From: Escherichia phage PC2
Sequence record: NC_073088
Strand: one strand, 5' to 3'
DNA length: 45,201 nt
Position 1 is the first letter of the stretch. Every line of letters starts with the position of its first letter. Below, piece after piece: positions 3,051 to 10,884 of this stretch. The notes beneath the pieces are model-generated. The model saw only the letters and a list, made by a program, of their open reading frames with translations. It did not search any database and was not told the origin of the DNA. A program made the translations under genes and the position numbers.

Positions 3051-4475
3051 ATGGCACGTTTCCGACGTCGCGAATATCAGAAGTTGATAACCGCGTTCAT
3101 CCTCAAGCATAAGCGCTGCAATATTTGGGCGACAATGGGGTCGGGTAAAACCGGCGCGACCATGTGGGCGCTGAATAAAATGTTCCAGACCGGCATCCTG
3201 TCCAACCAGGAGGACCGCGTACTGGTGCTTGCCCCGCTGCGCGTCGCATCGGGCACATGGCCCCCGGAACAAGAAAAATGGCGCTTCCCCGCCCTGCTGG
3301 TAGTAGACGGCACCGGGTCAGAGAAGGACCGCATCGCTGCGCTTGAGAGCGACGCTAACGTGGTTTGTGTTAACTATGATGTGGTTGAGTGGCTTGTTGA
3401 GTATTGCGGCGACGAGTGGCCCTTTACGGTCGTTGTTGCCGATGAATCCACTAAGCTGAAAGGCTACCGCAGCAAGCAGGGGAGTAAGCGCGCCCGCGCC
3501 CTGGCGGCGATCGCACATAAGCGCGTCAAGCGCTGGATTAACCTTACCGGCACACCCGCACCAAACGGGCTGAAAGACCTATGGGGTCAGACGTGGTTTG
3601 TCGACGGTGGCGAACGCCTCGGCAGTAGCTATAAGGCATTCACGGATCGCTGGTTTATTAGCAAGCCTGTTAAGCCTGGCAGCTTCACTATGCAGCACGC
3701 CCCGCTAAAGAACTCCGAGAAGGAGATCCAACAACGCCTGTCTGACGTATCCCTTACCGTTGACGCGGCTGAATACTTCGGATGTGACAAGCCAATCTAT
3801 ACTCCGGTTGTTGTGGACCTGCCGAAGAAAGCCCGCAAGATTTATGACCAGTTCGAAGCGGAGCTATTTGCCGAACTGGAAAGCGGAACGGTGGAGGCGG
3901 CGAACGCTGCTTCGAAGACTATTAAGTGCCTTCAGCTTGCTTCCGGGGCCGTGTATAAAGTCGACGAAGACGGCGAGCGCACCGACGAATGGGTGAAAAT
4001 CCACGACGCTAAACTGGACGCGCTGGAAAGTATCGTGGAGGAGTTGAACGGCGCACCGCTGCTCGTCGCGTACCAGTACAAGCATGACCTGGCGCGTCTC
4101 AAGAAGAAATTCCCTCACGGCGTAGCGATGGGTAAGGGTAAGCAAGGCAATAAGGATATGGAAGCGTGGAACAGGGGCGAGATCCCCATCATGTTCGCGC
4201 ACCCGGCATCGGCGGGTCACGGCCTTAACTTGCAGGATGGCGGACACCACCTTGCCATCTTCTCAGACACCTGGAACTATGAGCATTTTTCGCAGATTGT
4301 GGAGCGTATCGGGCCGGTTCGCCAGATGCAAGCCGGACACCCTCGTCCGGTATTCGTCTACATTATCCAGGCGCGTGGCACACTGGATGAACTTGTCGCC
4401 GAGCGTCGCGACAGTAAGCGGGATATTCAGGACGACTTGATGGAATACATGAAAGCTAAAAAGGCACGCAAATGA
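3051..4475 (+). CDS. SF2 (SNF2/DEAD-like) DNA helicase
   Basis: Walker A GSGKTGAT, motif II VVVADESTKLK, C-terminal motif HPASAGHGLNLQ. Start set at MARFRRREYQ; an alternative GTG start at 2961 exists. Confidence 0.8.
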   Translation: MARFRRREYQKLITAFILKHKRCNIWATMGSGKTGATMWALNKMFQTGILSNQEDRVLVLAPLRVASGTWPPEQEKWRFPALLVVDGTGSEKDRIAALESDANVVCVNYDVVEWLVEYCGDEWPFTVVVADESTKLKGYRSKQGSKRARALAAIAHKRVKRWINLTGTPAPNGLKDLWGQTWFVDGGERLGSSYKAFTDRWFISKPVKPGSFTMQHAPLKNSEKEIQQRLSDVSLTVDAAEYFGCDKPIYTPVVVDLPKKARKIYDQFEAELFAELESGTVEAANAASKTIKCLQLASGAVYKVDEDGERTDEWVKIHDAKLDALESIVEELNGAPLLVAYQYKHDLARLKKKFPHGVAMGKGKQGNKDMEAWNRGEIPIMFAHPASAGHGLNLQDGGHHLAIFSDTWNYEHFSQIVERIGPVRQMQAGHPRPVFVYIIQARGTLDELVAERRDSKRDIQDDLMEYMKAKKARK

Positions 4476-5182
4476 CTATTGCTAAAATGACAATCTGGTC
4501 ATTATTTGACGGCAGCGGCTTGATGATTGAGCGTGCTGCCGAGATGGGGCATAAGTGCTATTGCTTCAACTACTCCGAAGCCGATCACGGGTCGTACCTG
4601 GACTACCGGATCTATGGGCGCGGTATCCGATATCGTAATGAGTTTATCGATCTGGACTTCGTAGACCGCGCGATGAATGGCGATTTCGGTACGCCGGATA
4701 TCATCTACGCATTCCCGCCGTGTACGGATCTGGCGGTTAGCGGTGCGCCAGCGTTCCCGCGCAAACGCTCCCGCGACCCTGCCTTCCAGCTTAAGGCGGT
4801 GCGCACCGCGAAGATCGCCGCTTACCTGGGTGATTTCTTCGAAGTGCCATATATGATTGAGAATCCGCGCAGCGTGCTATCAACTCAATGGCGTAAGCCG
4901 GACCACTCGTTTGACCCGTGGGAGTATGGCGGATATCTGCCGGAGGATGACGTGCACCCGTTATTCCCGGAATACATCAACGCCCGCGATTCATATCCGA
5001 AGTTGACCTGCTTATGGACCGGCAACGGCTTCCGTATGCCAGAGAAGAAACCTGTTTTCGTTGAAAAAGGGTACTCGAAGCAGTATAGTCGCCTCGGAGG
5101 CAAATCAGCCCGCACAAAATTAATCCGGTCGCTCACCCCGCGCGGCTTCGCGATAGCGGTTAACGAGGAAAATTTAAAATGA
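4472..5182 (+). CDS. DNA (cytosine-5)-methyltransferase-like protein, short, no obvious target-recognition domain
   Basis: 236 aa; motif I-like SLFDGSGL, motif IV-like AFPPCTDLAVSG (PCT in place of PCQ), motif VI-like MIENPRSVL (ENP in place of ENV). ATGA overlap with helicase stop. Confidence 0.55.
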   Translation: MTIAKMTIWSLFDGSGLMIERAAEMGHKCYCFNYSEADHGSYLDYRIYGRGIRYRNEFIDLDFVDRAMNGDFGTPDIIYAFPPCTDLAVSGAPAFPRKRSRDPAFQLKAVRTAKIAAYLGDFFEVPYMIENPRSVLSTQWRKPDHSFDPWEYGGYLPEDDVHPLFPEYINARDSYPKLTCLWTGNGFRMPEKKPVFVEKGYSKQYSRLGGKSARTKLIRSLTPRGFAIAVNEENLK

Positions 5183-5502
5183 ATACTGCATTCGACGCCA
5201 TCGACTTTTCAGTGGCAATGACCAATCAGCTTTTTTCCTACGACAGCAAGACCGGCGTCATTCGCCTGAAGTCAACCGGCTGCAAGATTGGCAACCTCAA
5301 TACTGCCGATGGCGGTACTCGTATCGAATGCAACGGCAAGACGCTGTCTGGCGCACGCGTGGCGTGGATTATCGCGACCGGCAATACAATCCCACCAGGC
5401 TTTGCCGTTGTGTGCCGTCAGCGCACGCCAGGCCATTACGGCAACCGGATCAGCAATCTCTATTTGGTTGACGTAGCGCGCGATCCTAACTTTTATGCGT
5501 AA
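5179..5502 (+). CDS. HNH_3/NUMOD-like homing-endonuclease-related protein, probably degenerate
   Basis: 107 aa; pattern ...GY..IECNGKTLSGARVAWIIATGNTIPPGF...NRISNLYLVD resembles the HNH_3 layout but lacks the usual His residues; ATGA overlap with upstream stop. Confidence 0.35.
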   Translation: MNTAFDAIDFSVAMTNQLFSYDSKTGVIRLKSTGCKIGNLNTADGGTRIECNGKTLSGARVAWIIATGNTIPPGFAVVCRQRTPGHYGNRISNLYLVDVARDPNFYA

Positions 5503-5536: not shown

Positions 5537-5538
5537 TA

Positions 5539-5563
5539 GGGTGTCCGGTCGGACGCCCTTTTT
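5539..5563 (+). terminator. Terminator-like hairpin plus T5 tract overlapping the start of the 5508-5536 promoter transcript
   Basis: GGGTGTCCG..CGGACGCCC followed by TTTTTAAT, 20 nt before the RBS of ORF 5583. Confidence 0.5.
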
Positions 5564-5582
5564 AATACCTGGAGACAACACG

Positions 5583-6047
5583 ATGAAAATTTTACAAGAA
5601 GAGAAAAATTACTGGGCCGCGCAATGCCTCGAAGCCCGCGAACAGGCCGAACGTGCGAACGCGCTGGCGGATACCTACCTGTCAAGCTATGAAACGGAAG
5701 AAAAGCGTCGCATAGAGTTAGAGGAGCGCTTCGAACTGCTTTTCGAACTGATGGGGATTATGCAGCGCACCGGATACACCACCAGCGTTGCACTAAACCG
5801 CGTCACCGCCGAAGGTCTGCGCGAGCACTGTAAACGTGCGGAGGAGTACGTGCGACCGAAGGGTCGCCAGTCTAAGGTTGACCGGAAAGACCTTGTGCTT
5901 ATGGCGTGGCGCAACCCTACAAACGGCAGCTTCTACCCGGACGCGCGCCCGCTTAGTGCTGAGGAGTCAAAGCGCGTGCAACGCATTCTCAAAACCGGCA
6001 ATAAAATCGCCCTGTATGCGATAGACACCGACCATGCGGAAGAGTGA
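5583..6047 (+). CDS. Hypothetical protein (predicted coiled-coil N-terminus)
   Basis: 154 aa after RBS GGAGA (7-nt spacing); sits downstream of promoter 5508-5536. Confidence 0.5.
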   Translation: MKILQEEKNYWAAQCLEAREQAERANALADTYLSSYETEEKRRIELEERFELLFELMGIMQRTGYTTSVALNRVTAEGLREHCKRAEEYVRPKGRQSKVDRKDLVLMAWRNPTNGSFYPDARPLSAEESKRVQRILKTGNKIALYAIDTDHAEE

Positions 6048-6519
6048 GCAAAAAGATAGCTGGCGCACGCCGCCAGCTTTATTTAAACCGCTGCGCCGAA
6101 AGTACCGATTCCGTTATGACATGGCGGCGAGCGATGCCAACCACCTGCTACCGCGTTACTTCACGGCGGAGCACAGCGCGCTAGATGTGGACTGGTCAGA
6201 GTTGAAAGGGTGGAAGTGGTGCAACCCACCGTATTCCGATCCGCTGCCGTGGGTCGAGTGCGCAGCGCATGGACGTCGGACCGTCATGCTACTGAATCAG
6301 GATACGTCGACTAAGTGGGCGAAACTGGCCCGGAAGACTGCAAACCTGATAATTCTTCTGGACTGGCGTATCCGATTTATTCACGCTGTAACTGGTGAAG
6401 TCGGGCCTAGCAATAACAAGTGCCAGCAATTGATAATCTTCGACGAAGCGCTACCCTTCGGCGGCGCACAAATTGAAATAATGAGCGAAGGAGAACTCCT
6501 TGAATATCTTAATCGTTGA
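6034..6519 (+). CDS. Phage Dam-like DNA N6-adenine methyltransferase
   Basis: 161 aa; WRTPPALF...DMAASDANHL...WCNPPYSD (NPPY catalytic motif), typical of phage orphan Dam methylases. Confidence 0.75.
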   Translation: MRKSEQKDSWRTPPALFKPLRRKYRFRYDMAASDANHLLPRYFTAEHSALDVDWSELKGWKWCNPPYSDPLPWVECAAHGRRTVMLLNQDTSTKWAKLARKTANLIILLDWRIRFIHAVTGEVGPSNNKCQQLIIFDEALPFGGAQIEIMSEGELLEYLNR

Positions 6520-6724
6520 CCGCGACCCCGCGGTAGTAGACCAAATGCAAAAAGACTACGGTATTGACCCGCGACGCGATCGAGTGGTGCGCGCGTCTCG
6601 CCACGAATACATCATGGGCCTTGACCTCACCGGTTGGCTTGTCATGACTCAGCGTTGCCATTTCGTGTGCAACTCCTTTACTGCGCGAAGTGCCCGTTAC
6701 ACCCTTATTGAGAGTTTAAAATGA
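6500..6724 (+). CDS. Hypothetical small protein
   Basis: 74-aa ORF with non-ATG start after AAGGAG; start uncertain. Confidence 0.3.
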   Translation: MNILIVDRDPAVVDQMQKDYGIDPRRDRVVRASRHEYIMGLDLTGWLVMTQRCHFVCNSFTARSARYTLIESLK

Positions 6725-7191
6725 AATTATTGATTTGCGATTTGGATGGCGTTATTAACGGTTCAAGCGATGCGCGTGCCGACCTGGTACCTGGGATAAA
6801 AACTAAATCCACCTTTTGGGCGAAGTGGCACAAAGCGCACGTCCGCGAAGACCTGAACATGGATATGCTGCCGTTGTTGCGCATGTATAAAGAGCAAGGC
6901 TTCGAGATCGCGTATCTGACCAACCGGCAGCGTGAATGTTGGGACACCACCGCGGAGCAATTGAAGGTCTTCCCAGTAGGCCGGTTGTTTATGCGCCACA
7001 TGCTGGACGACACCCCGCCGCCTGAGTTTAAGGCGTGCGCCGTGTTCAAAATGGTCTGTTACGCGGACGTGTCTGAACTGGTCATCATTGAAGATTGCGA
7101 GAAGAACATCGCGGCAATTCGTCGGGTGTGTGGTGATTTGGTCCCGAAAATTTACGCAATAAACGTTGCAAAATTCACTTGCAACCAATAG
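6721..7191 (+). CDS. HAD-superfamily phosphatase-like protein (possible polynucleotide 3'-phosphatase or nucleotidase)
   Basis: N-terminal HAD motif I LICDLDGVI; ATGA overlap with upstream stop. Confidence 0.55.
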   Translation: MKLLICDLDGVINGSSDARADLVPGIKTKSTFWAKWHKAHVREDLNMDMLPLLRMYKEQGFEIAYLTNRQRECWDTTAEQLKVFPVGRLFMRHMLDDTPPPEFKACAVFKMVCYADVSELVIIEDCEKNIAAIRRVCGDLVPKIYAINVAKFTCNQ

Positions 7192-8457: not shown

Positions 8458-10884
8458 TTATGCTTTAGACAGCGCCGCTACGGCAGCTTTCAATTCCTCC
8501 AGTTCACTACGCAACGACACCAGTTCTTCTTCCTGCTCTTTGCACACCTGCACTGCATAAGCGGCAATAGCGCCATAGTCGACCTGAAAGAAGCGCTGAC
8601 GACCCACCAGCTCCTCTCCGTCTTGCGTTGGCCCTGCGAGGTATTCGTGGTCCTCAAACGTGCTCACTGCTTCCGGCACAACGTCCATTACTTCCTGCGC
8701 AATAACCCCGGCGTAAGGCATACCGTCTTTTTTCAGGGTGTAGGTGTAACCGCCCATCTTAGCAAGGCCCGCGCGAGCGTTCTCGATCGGCTTGATGTTG
8801 TCCTTCAACTCGCGGTCCGATGACTGGTTTACCGTCGTGCAGTTTACCGTCCCGTTAACGCTCATCTGGCGCGTGCCGTTGCTGTTATACTGGGCGTAAA
8901 AAAGCCACCCCGGACCATCGTCAAGCCCAAACTCAATAACCGACGGGCGACCTGCCCCGTTACCCCACAATTTGAAGGTTGCTGGGTGTGACGAGTTGCC
9001 GTCGTTCTGCATTTTGAAATACTTGCCACTCGGACGGTTGATCTCTAAACTTGCGGCCTGAACGTATGCTTTACCCGCAAAATTCTTTGTACCAAGCACA
9101 ACGCCGTCCTTGATCAGCTCAACCTTACACGATGTAATATCGTTCAGGAATAAGGCGTTCGTCCCAGTGTCTTTCCCTAAAAACCAAAGACGTGTGCCTG
9201 CGGAGTTGTACCCTGTTACGTGCAGTGGTTGGTCGTTTGTTGACGCTGTTCCGTCGATACGAAATCCGCCATTAGCGGTTATAACTTTAATGCTGGGTAC
9301 GGTCATAGCAAATGTGCCGCTGGCTGCAAGCCCGTTATACGCGATCAGATTGTTGTCATACGCCAGTTCGCCGTTGTCACGAAGTTGAAAGTATTTATTA
9401 GATGCCGAGTTGTGAACAAATACATCTTTGGCGCCAGGTTTAATAGTTATGATCTTTCCGTCAACGGAAGCGCGCACCGCAGATCCAGTAATTACTCCAG
9501 AAAAAGTCGGCGACGACCCTGCGTTATACAACTCGTACCACTGCGACCATATTCCAGTAGCCGCGTTGTCTAGCCATCGAATCCAGCGCCGCCCGTTGCG
9601 GTATAATGTGTACGTCTGTACGCAACTCTTCGGGTCGTTAGCGCCAGTGCGCTGAACAAGTAGGCAACCTGCTTCCTGAAAGGGATAATTACGCTCCGGC
9701 GTTGCGTTGGCACTCAGGCCAGTATAATAAAATCCGGCCTTATCACCCTGAAGGTCGTTAAGGTCTTCGCTTACCAACGTTGCCCGGCGCTCGTGCATTG
9801 CCTGAAGATTGGCGCGCGCGCCCTGGTCGTTTGACGCACCTGTCCCACCGTCTCCGATCGCCACGTCCCCATTTGACCCCAGCTTCGCAAGCTCAATAGC
9901 GCTAACCCTTCCAGACGATCCGTTAATCGCGGCATTGTTTCCCGAGAAAACTTTAACGCGCGAGGTTTGCCAGTCAACGTTGATTGCAAAGAATGTATCC
10001 CCCGCGCCGCCACATACACCGGGTCCGTATCTGAAAGGGGTCATCTCACCGGCTTGGAACTGCGAAATATCATCAACGCGCCAAAAACCGCCTTTGACCG
10101 CATCGCGCAACCGCTTTAGCATATCCCTCACGCCAGTCGGAGCGTTTACGGTGACGCCCGCATACGGCACTTTCTGCGAGGCGTCCGCGCTGTTCGCAAA
10201 GCCTTCTGCCTCGTCGCGGAATCCTTTTGCCTGATCTTTAGCAGTTACGGCCTGCGACTTAGCAGTTACGGCCTGCGACTTAGCTGTCTCCGCGGCAGTC
10301 TTTGCGGACTCGGCTGCCGTCTTAGCTGTCTCGGCTTTGCCCTGTGCGGCCTCCGCCGCTGTTTTAGCTGTATTCGCGGTGTTCTTGAATCCTTCCGCCT
10401 CGTTACGGAAGCCTTGCGCCTGGTTTTTAGCCGTGATGGTCTGGTCTGCGATAGCCTGCAATTCAACCGGGTCTACATCTTTAAGCAGTTTAGACAGGTA
10501 GCCCCACGACATGCCCTGCACTACTTGACCGTTCGGCAGCGTGACCGAGATTTCCTCTTCTTCTCCGAAGATTGCGCGCCAGTTGTTCTCATCTGCGATC
10601 ATCAATCGCAGCGCTTTTTGCGCCTGGACGGTTACGCCCATCGTCGCCAGCGACATGGTATCGCGCTTAACGCCATCCCACGCAAGGCCGGTTGCCGTTG
10701 GGCCGTCGAACGGCAACACCAGCGTGAGCGCGGTTGCGCTTTCAATGGACGCGATCGCTACGGTGTAGGGGACTTGTCCTACCACCAGCGTTAAGAAGTC
10801 ACCAGCTTTAAACGCGGTAAACGTTGTGCCTACCCCTACAACCGCCTTGCTGTTATTCGTTACGGATAGAGTACCCGCTGCCAT
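8458..10884 (-). CDS. Tail fibre protein with C-terminal intramolecular-chaperone (endosialidase-chaperone-like) domain
   Basis: 808 aa; Ala/Lys/Thr heptad repeats in the shaft; C-terminus ...SSDRELKDNIKPIENA...GGYTYTLKK...GVIAQEV...; last gene of the tail operon; RBS GAGGA. Confidence 0.8.
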   Translation of the reverse strand: MAAGTLSVTNNSKAVVGVGTTFTAFKAGDFLTLVVGQVPYTVAIASIESATALTLVLPFDGPTATGLAWDGVKRDTMSLATMGVTVQAQKALRLMIADENNWRAIFGEEEEISVTLPNGQVVQGMSWGYLSKLLKDVDPVELQAIADQTITAKNQAQGFRNEAEGFKNTANTAKTAAEAAQGKAETAKTAAESAKTAAETAKSQAVTAKSQAVTAKDQAKGFRDEAEGFANSADASQKVPYAGVTVNAPTGVRDMLKRLRDAVKGGFWRVDDISQFQAGEMTPFRYGPGVCGGAGDTFFAINVDWQTSRVKVFSGNNAAINGSSGRVSAIELAKLGSNGDVAIGDGGTGASNDQGARANLQAMHERRATLVSEDLNDLQGDKAGFYYTGLSANATPERNYPFQEAGCLLVQRTGANDPKSCVQTYTLYRNGRRWIRWLDNAATGIWSQWYELYNAGSSPTFSGVITGSAVRASVDGKIITIKPGAKDVFVHNSASNKYFQLRDNGELAYDNNLIAYNGLAASGTFAMTVPSIKVITANGGFRIDGTASTNDQPLHVTGYNSAGTRLWFLGKDTGTNALFLNDITSCKVELIKDGVVLGTKNFAGKAYVQAASLEINRPSGKYFKMQNDGNSSHPATFKLWGNGAGRPSVIEFGLDDGPGWLFYAQYNSNGTRQMSVNGTVNCTTVNQSSDRELKDNIKPIENARAGLAKMGGYTYTLKKDGMPYAGVIAQEVMDVVPEAVSTFEDHEYLAGPTQDGEELVGRQRFFQVDYGAIAAYAVQVCKEQEEELVSLRSELEELKAAVAALSKA
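10240..10281. repeat. Perfect 21-bp tandem duplication inside the tail fibre gene
   Basis: AGCAGTTACGGCCTGCGACTT twice in tandem, encoding KSQAVTA twice; within a longer 21-nt periodic region (about 10225-10390). Confidence 0.8.

Follow-up and report, generated by a model that had tools for sequence, protein, structure and literature searches.

A compact Dcm-like gene adjoining a helicase gene of Escherichia phage PC2 probably encodes a DNA cytosine-C5 methyltransferase

We analyzed a stretch of 45,201 nucleotides of Escherichia phage PC2 (NC_073088), whose whole length is called here the window and which is that of a Dhillonvirus coliphage. An open reading frame (ORF) of 236 amino acids lies on its plus strand at positions 4472 to 5182, with an ATG at 4472 and a TGA at 5180-5182, as read from the ORF list and the sequence. 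Its membership in the PHROG 757 family, the annotated phage records and the fold matches mark it as the putative coding sequence of a compact, Dcm-like DNA cytosine-C5 methyltransferase. In our analysis the gene very probably encodes an active, stand-alone enzyme, dependent on S-adenosylmethionine (SAM), that belongs to a compact and mainly phage-borne family. An earlier note, made from the sequence alone, had placed the ORF here and listed FDGSG, PPC and ENP as its motifs, and direct reading of the sequence agreed with it on location and motif order.

Upstream of the methyltransferase gene lies a gene for a SNF2/DEAD-type helicase (3051-4475, plus strand; Pfam SNF2-rel_dom, E = 3.3e-11), annotated as a helicase in phage welsh. 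The longest helicase ORF begins at a GTG at 2961; the annotated homologue has its start codon at the position of the ATG at 3051. A Shine-Dalgarno-like AAAGG (4460-4464) sits 7 nucleotides 5' of the methyltransferase start, whose ATG (4472-4474) shares four base pairs, ATGA (4472-4475), with the helicase stop codon TGA (4473-4475), so that the whole start region spans 4460-4475 on the plus strand. The same 4-bp overlap is found in the annotation of phage welsh. At its other end, the methyltransferase stop overlaps the ATG at 5179 of the next ORF (ATGA, 5179-5182), a 107-amino-acid HNH-endonuclease-like frame (5179-5502, plus strand; PHROG 99 "HNH endonuclease", E = 4.2e-16) that is annotated as an HNH endonuclease in related phages. 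The earlier note had taken the gene as translationally coupled to the helicase gene; the 4-bp overlap is there, and both overlaps are compatible with coupling but are no proof of it. The methyltransferase gene lies within the replication module, and it and the helicase gene are probably translated together. Terminator-like hairpins, recognized by pattern on the plus strand at 2792-2808 and 5538-5559, flank a possible unit made up of a small ORF and the helicase, methyltransferase and HNH genes.

The first half of the protein follows the canonical order of C5-methyltransferase motifs. Motif I, LFDGSG (residues 11-16, with FDGSG at 12-16; nucleotides 4502-4519, plus strand), is the predicted SAM-binding loop after strand beta1 and aligns with LFDGIATG of the mammalian methyltransferase DNMT3A (hhalign E = 7.4e-5) and with F18 of HhaI. 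The Asp/Asn position at the end of beta2 is taken by N33 and is followed by an insertion of about 18 residues that contains the invariant D38-H39-G40. Motif IV, PPCTD (residues 82-86; 4715-4729, plus strand), holds the predicted nucleophile Cys84, which aligns with C81 of HhaI and C710 of DNMT3A and corresponds to C82 of the Dcm of phage K42, an orthologue discussed below. Motif VI, IENP (residues 129-132; 4856-4867, plus strand), holds Glu130, the counterpart of the ENV glutamate, which aligns with E119 of HhaI and corresponds to E128 of K42 Dcm. In motif IV the Pro-Cys pair is present and the Gln of the usual PCQ is replaced by Thr throughout the close family, a position where DNMT3A has Asn (SPCNDLS vs PPCTDLA in the PC2 protein); in motif VI the Val of ENV is replaced by the invariant Pro132. 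These replacements do not point to decay or to new chemistry: they are invariant throughout a family of about 1,900 clusters, and DNMT3A also lacks the Gln.

The second half departs further from the known pattern. The helix-strand unit after ENP is shorter than usual and is followed by a family-specific conserved block (residues 149-184; 4916-5023, plus strand) composed of PWEYGGY, an insertion of about 22 residues and YPKLTCLW; we regard this block as a candidate non-canonical DNA-contact element. In canonical enzymes motif VIII is preceded by xxDYGxPQ, to which PWEYGGY (149-155) bears a resemblance. The segment YPK177-L-T179-CLW182, on a predicted strand (179-184), has no QxRxR and would putatively take the position of motif VIII with the arginines missing. 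Its K177 corresponds to K175 of K42 Dcm, which Wang et al. assigned to substrate binding (bioRxiv 10.1101/2023.08.16.553469). From the putative motif VIII position (177-182) to the motif IX-like segment (from 218) there are about 35 residues, compared with about 100-105 in M.HhaI and about 65 in DNMT3A. The earlier note was right that a protein of this length has no room for a normal target-recognition domain, a variable region that usually takes up some 80-100 residues or more between motifs VIII and IX.

A C-terminal conserved block, LGGKSARTKLIRSLTPRGFAIAV (residues 208-230; 5093-5161, plus strand), consists of a motif IX-like RxLTPR and the terminal helix. R219-S-L-T-P-R224 resembles motif IX, aligns weakly with HhaI 272-277 and is followed by 12 residues. 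Judging from a weak alignment alone (E = 0.086), block 208-230 may be a vestige of the end of the recognition domain joined to a motif IX-like segment. Motif X, GN(A/S)V, was sought C-terminal of IRSLTPR and is not present there. Counted from the motif IX-like segment, 19 residues remain to the end of the protein (HhaI, 56; DNMT3A, 52), too few for both motif IX and motif X, and the protein has at most one of them. The terminal helix (224-234) was modelled by AlphaFold2 with a predicted local distance difference test score (pLDDT) of about 94, and in the model this single helix may stand in place of the motif X helix (compare LLGRSWSVPV of DNMT3A).

Profile alignment, which the earlier note had proposed as a check, supports the assignment of the protein to the C5-methyltransferase fold and did not place it in an unrelated Rossmann family. 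The family profile aligned with the DNMT3A catalytic domain, for which we used a sequence identical to PDB 5yx2_A, with an hhalign E value of 7.4e-5 over residues 2-89 (motifs I-IV), and ENP fell on ENV. Three homologues, 62-63% identical to the PC2 protein, pass the PF00145 gathering score of 22 bits (28.5, 24.7 and 25.4 bits) over motifs I-IV only. A profile made of M.HhaI and 43 viral canonical C5-methyltransferases gave two weak, collinear local alignments: residues 1-137 on HhaI 12-126, which pairs F12 with F18, C84 with C81 and E130 with E119, and residues 209-224, GGKSART..KLIRSLTPR, on HhaI 256-277, GGIFAKTGGYLVNGKTRKLHPR, which comprises the end of the recognition domain and motif IX (weak, E = 0.086). 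When hhalign was run against M.HhaI alone or with 16 close HhaI homologues, sets with too little diversity, no usable alignment was obtained or the sequences were mis-aligned, and the -glob option gave nonsensical output.

Fold comparison pointed to the same enzymes. The AlphaFold2 model (pLDDT 89.9, predicted template modelling score 0.89) matched the C5-methyltransferase catalytic-domain fold, with DNMT3A, DNMT3B and DNMT3C as the top Foldseek matches, down to E = 5e-7; as modelled, the core most resembles the catalytic domain of the DNMT3 enzymes. The sequence identity to the catalytic domains of mammalian DNMT3A and DNMT3B (PDB 6u8p, 4u7t, 6f57) is only 13-16%. DNMT3A also differs in having ENV, RxR and both motifs IX and X, and the DNMT3 enzymes need oligomerisation and regulatory domains; the resemblance implies no shared specificity. 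The canonical type II enzymes (PF00145; M.HhaI, M.HaeIII and E. coli Dcm) share with the PC2 protein the order of motifs I, IV and VI, the predicted Cys and Glu and a Rossmann-like core. They are 327-472 amino acids long, with a motif VIII to IX distance of about 100 residues in HhaI, whereas the PC2 protein has 236 amino acids, a distance of about 35, PCT for PCQ, ENP for ENV, no QxRxR and no GN(A/S)V. Insertions typical of its own family follow motif II (DHG) and precede the putative motif VIII, and the protein falls below the Pfam threshold.

The gene is widely distributed. Versions with 90-97% nucleotide identity occur in 153 phage records, nearly all of them Escherichia phages of the genus Dhillonvirus, and since the adjacent helicase gene is found in 161 records, the methyltransferase gene can be regarded as near-core. 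In those records its annotation ranges from "hypothetical protein" to "putative DNA cytosine methyltransferase C5". The protein matches PHROG 757 "DNA methyltransferase" over residues 2-234 (E = 1.6e-83), and VOG4567 is the label of both the phage welsh and the phage aaroes genes. A word-indexed search returned 2,871 homologous clusters at 90% identity, and an exhaustive profile search returned 1,939 clusters at 50% identity (E <= 1e-3) with a typical length of 210-260 amino acids. By tblastn the protein is present in 1,509 phage records, including Drexlerviridae, rV5-like phages, Klebsiella Webervirus, phiKO2, 9NA and Campylobacter and Vibrio phages. Being found family-wide, the small size and both motif variants, PCT and ENP, are characters of the family and not a local oddity. 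The family is already annotated and, through one orthologue, experimentally characterised, and the gene is near-identical in about 150 Dhillonvirus genomes.

Conservation was followed in a close set of 25 homologues (57-84% identity) and in a diverse set of 74 representatives (31-55% identity to the PC2 protein). Invariant in the close set are F12, G14, S15, G16, P82, P83, C84, T85, E130, N131 and P132 of the canonical motifs, as well as P149, G153, Y155, L156, D160, P163, P166, I169, D173, Y175, K177, T179 and W182 of the block before the gap and L208, G209, G210, K211, T215, K216 and I218 to R224 of the C-terminal block (LGGK...TK.IRSLTPR). Among the diverse representatives C84, E130, P132, P149, Y175, W182 and P190 remain invariant, and N131, K177 and T179 are conserved in at least 90%. 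The comparison with the phage welsh gene revealed 37 nucleotide differences in 37 codons, and as 35 of the changes are synonymous and two non-synonymous, the gene is under strong purifying selection.

Four near-identical alleles from metagenome assemblies (P0004, P0009, P0017 and P0097) have lost catalytic parts to large in-frame deletions or to truncation. P0004 is without about residues 97-133, including ENP, and P0009 without residues 100-172, while P0017, which has 24 member sequences and lies on a 44.7-kb contig, starts after PPC. Such alleles could be natural loss-of-function variants, for example escapers from an Ec86-type retron, or assembly artefacts.

What the enzyme may do is best judged from its orthologue in K42, a phage that is 95.4% identical to the BASEL phage KarlJaspers, Bas06 (bioRxiv 10.1101/2023.08.16.553469). 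The KarlJaspers gene bas06_0055 (QXV82308.1), named "Dcm-like C5 cytosine methyltransferase", has 711 bp and encodes 236 amino acids; its product is 54% identical to the PC2 protein over 234 aligned residues (E = 3e-86), with C82, E128 and K175 in register with C84, E130 and K177. The orthologue of phage aaroes (Hanrivervirus) gave the same alignment outcome. Both genes have 711 bp and belong to the same PHROG/VOG family, have their motifs in register and lie in an early or replication gene region; they differ in that K42 and Bas06 are Drexlerviridae of the genus Hanrivervirus and PC2 is a Dhillonvirus, and in that the gene of the former is not adjacent to a helicase gene. Wang et al. found the 711-bp "dcm" gene disrupted in all four K42 escapers from retron Ec86 (Eco1), and K42 dcm expressed alone was toxic only in Ec86-carrying cells (bioRxiv 10.1101/2023.08.16.553469). 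In the same study, liquid chromatography-mass spectrometry detected high 5-methylcytosine (5mC) on the multicopy single-stranded DNA (msDNA) of the retron with wild-type K42 Dcm and low 5mC with a C82A/E128A/K175A/K176A mutant or the empty vector; DNMT3A was the best structural match of K42 Dcm, and Dcm was present in 34 of 35 Ec86-sensitive phages of the Drexlerviridae, Siphoviridae and Demerecviridae, with Dhillonvirus not named (bioRxiv 10.1101/2023.08.16.553469). Judged by sequence, then, the PC2 protein is orthologous to an enzyme whose formation of 5mC, with no phage partner, has direct if limited support.

This last point bears on the possibility that the PC2 protein is a catalytic subunit that needs a partner for targeting, be it the helicase, some other protein of phage or host, or, as in a DNMT3-type dimer, a second copy. 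In favour of this are a very small recognition region of about 35 residues, the 4-bp overlap with the helicase gene, the frequent position of family members beside helicase or primase genes, and the nearest solved fold, DNMT3A/B, which acts as a dimer or tetramer. Two-polypeptide C5-methyltransferases are also known, as in M.AquI and M.EcoHK31I. However, the immediate neighbours vary between phage groups and the downstream ORF is HNH-like, and the K42 orthologue, alone on a plasmid and with no phage, raised the 5mC of msDNA and activated the retron, which rules out an obligate phage-encoded partner. A partner-dependent enzyme, one of the options raised by the earlier note, is thus unlikely, above all with a phage partner; homodimerisation as in DNMT3, or a host factor, is possible.

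A product other than 5mC seems very improbable to us. The protein would then be a C5 transferase with another cofactor, for example carboxy-SAM from the host CmoA, or would place a non-5mC modification as a handle. A known case of the first kind is the phage DNA cytosine C5-carboxymethyltransferase CmoX (PDB 8yf3), which has a crystallised chain of 372 amino acids with a full recognition domain, is linked to cmoA and cmoY and uses carboxy-SAM via R350 (PMC12783734). The fold of the PC2 protein would allow such an enzyme. Its motif, however, reads FPPC and not SPPC as in CmoX, no cmoA or ligase gene was found within the 10 kb examined around its gene, and 5mC is the product reported for the K42 orthologue. 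Nothing in this context or in the orthologue favours the different C5 modification that the earlier note had allowed for.

Genome composition was examined over the whole window (1-45201), with palindrome expectations from a maximal-order Markov model. CCWGG is not avoided (148 sites vs 164 expected) and neither is GATC (175 vs 207); these are the sites that Dcm-type and Dam-type methylation, respectively, would protect. Many other palindromes of 6 bp are absent: AAGCTT (0 found, 15 expected), GCCGGC (0, 18.1), GGGCCC (0, 14.3), TCCGGA (0, 14.3), CCATGG (0, 8.3), CGGCCG (0, 8.1), ATGCAT (0, 8), GCATGC (0, 8) and TGGCCA (0, 7.7); CTAG is rare (15 vs 53.5). These counts are compatible with a CCWGG-like specificity but are no proof of it, as Dhillonvirus genomes are all close relatives. 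Close relatives of the phage were isolated on K-12 MG1655. This strain is mcrBC+, and DNA heavily methylated in a purine-5mC context is a substrate of McrBC restriction; growth on such a host would be compatible with a pyrimidine-5mC target, for example C5mCWGG. For K42, Wang et al. assumed CCWGG by analogy with the host Dcm, and altering either C of CCTGG in the msDNA stem abolished defence (bioRxiv 10.1101/2023.08.16.553469). A search of the literature on the compact phage Dcm-like family found no methylome or specificity study.

The same data speak to a methyltransferase that is non-specific or recognizes 1-2 bp and so acts on most cytosines of the phage genome. The minimal recognition region would suit such an enzyme, and the specificity of the orthologue is an assumed one. 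Yet blanket C5 methylation would make the extreme avoidance of C-containing 6-bp palindromes largely unnecessary, and the relatives were isolated on MG1655, where McrBC would act on purine-5mC. We consider the non-specific methylase proposed earlier quite unlikely on these two grounds.

Several observations weigh against an active enzyme of the kind described. Pfam and NCBIfam scans of the PC2 protein gave no match even at E <= 10. PDB sequences were searched by phmmer and hmmsearch, with the protein and two family profiles as queries, and yielded nothing significant (HaeIII, E = 0.84; DNMT2, E = 0.68); a ToxD kinase match to residues 148-192 in this search was discarded as spurious. The second half of the protein is tied to C5-methyltransferases by the fold and the weak local alignment (E = 0.086) alone, the QxRxR arginines of motif VIII are unrecognisable (K177-L-T179) and the GN of motif X is absent. 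K176 of K42 Dcm, one of the four residues mutated together, is Leu178 in the PC2 protein. With regard to function, methyltransferase genes showed no simple relation to restriction resistance in the BASEL study of Drexlerviridae, which are relatives of Dhillonvirus. The low level of 5mC that msDNA had in the dcm+ control host is hard to square with the assumed CCWGG specificity. Since that host has its own Dcm and yet little 5mC on its msDNA, the phage enzyme may differ from the host Dcm.

The non-canonical PCT and ENP, the lack of QxRxR and GN motifs and the lack of a Pfam match would suit a catalytically dead methyltransferase fold kept for DNA binding, SAM binding or regulation. Against this, a very diverse family has kept the nucleophilic Cys, the Glu and the Gly-rich SAM loop without variation, the gene is under strong purifying selection, and the formation of 5mC by the orthologue depends on the catalytic residues. 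An inactive binding protein, another suggestion of the earlier note, has for these reasons little to recommend it and we give it a very small chance.

For an active, stand-alone methyltransferase we infer the following course. Motifs, conservation, fold and orthology come from the present analysis, 5mC formation and retron triggering are carried over from the literature on the orthologue, and the activity of the PC2 protein, its target site and its anti-restriction role are proposals. By the canonical C5 mechanism Cys84 of PPC would attack C6 of a flipped-out cytosine while Glu130 of ENP protonates N3 and the FDGSG loop holds SAM. DNA recognition would be carried out by two short family-specific blocks, 149-184 and 208-224, in place of the canonical two-lobed domain. 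Replicating phage DNA would be methylated at a short motif in a pyrimidine-5mC context, the proposed site being CCWGG-like, with 148 occurrences in the genome, and this methylation would blunt EcoRII-type restriction. As a side effect, the activity would serve as a danger signal read by retron Eco1 (Ec86).

A bolder version of this proposal is one we hold as doubtful. In it the protein would represent the smallest natural DNA C5-methyltransferase scaffold (about 230 amino acids), with a split mini-module (149-184 and 208-224) for recognition, a single C-terminal helix replacing motifs IX/X and a true target other than CCWGG, such as a different cytosine, a shorter motif, a hairpin or single-stranded DNA. 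A non-CCWGG target, if true, would explain why Ec86 is set off by the phage enzyme and not by the host Dcm.

The assignment matters in the first place for annotation, as the gene is often a "hypothetical protein" in Dhillonvirus records, and its orthology to an experimentally supported enzyme allows the name Dcm-like C5 cytosine methyltransferase. Phages that carry it are likely to modify their own DNA with 5mC, which suggests an anti-restriction role, and retron Eco1 (Ec86) is likely to sense them; either property matters for the prediction of host range and for the choice of therapy phages. The choice of a site by a 236-amino-acid enzyme without a canonical recognition domain or motif X would also be of interest for enzymology and for compact epigenome-editing tools.

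The surroundings of the gene differ from phage to phage. In 9NA its neighbours are small ORFs after the primase gene, in the rV5-like phage LL12 it lies upstream of a helicase-primase gene, in a Vibrio phage it is placed between a UvsW helicase gene and thymidylate synthase, and in Klebsiella phage Sushi and the Hanrivervirus phages it is surrounded by small ORFs. In PC2, the HNH-like ORF (5179-5502) that follows it is matched by PHROG 99 only over the middle of the profile (positions 108-198 of 383) and by no Pfam family, and could be the remnant, truncated or degenerate, of a homing endonuclease. The possibility that this ORF supplies a second methyltransferase subunit, as in M.AquI or M.EcoHK31I, was considered and rejected, given its PHROG 99 match and that it is not conserved beside the gene in other phage groups.

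The remaining ORFs nearby were assigned by Pfam and PHROG scans. A family A DNA polymerase occupies 1-2292 and is followed by a VRR-NUC nuclease that ends at 2570. Further downstream, a phage Dam-type N6-adenine methyltransferase of 161 amino acids (6034-6519, plus strand; Pfam PF05869, E = 2.2e-35) overlaps the end of a 154-amino-acid ORF (5583-6047), whose PHROG 10530 label "DNA ligase" seems doubtful, and the start of a 74-amino-acid ORF (6500-6724, plus strand; PHROG 10685, unknown function). The latter lies between the Dam-like gene and a HAD phosphatase gene (6721-7191), and in position and length it matches the published description of Ksap1, a Dhillonvirus protein sensed by Klebsiella Avs2 (PMC11564622). 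On the minus strand, an ORF of 808 amino acids (8458-10884), a "hypothetical protein" in phage welsh, contains a repeated stretch rich in Ala, Lys and Thr (TAKTAAEAAQGKAETAKTAAESAKTAAETAKSQAVTAKSQAVTAKDQAKG), and has a C-terminal region reminiscent of the self-cleaving chaperone domain of tail fibres or tail spikes.

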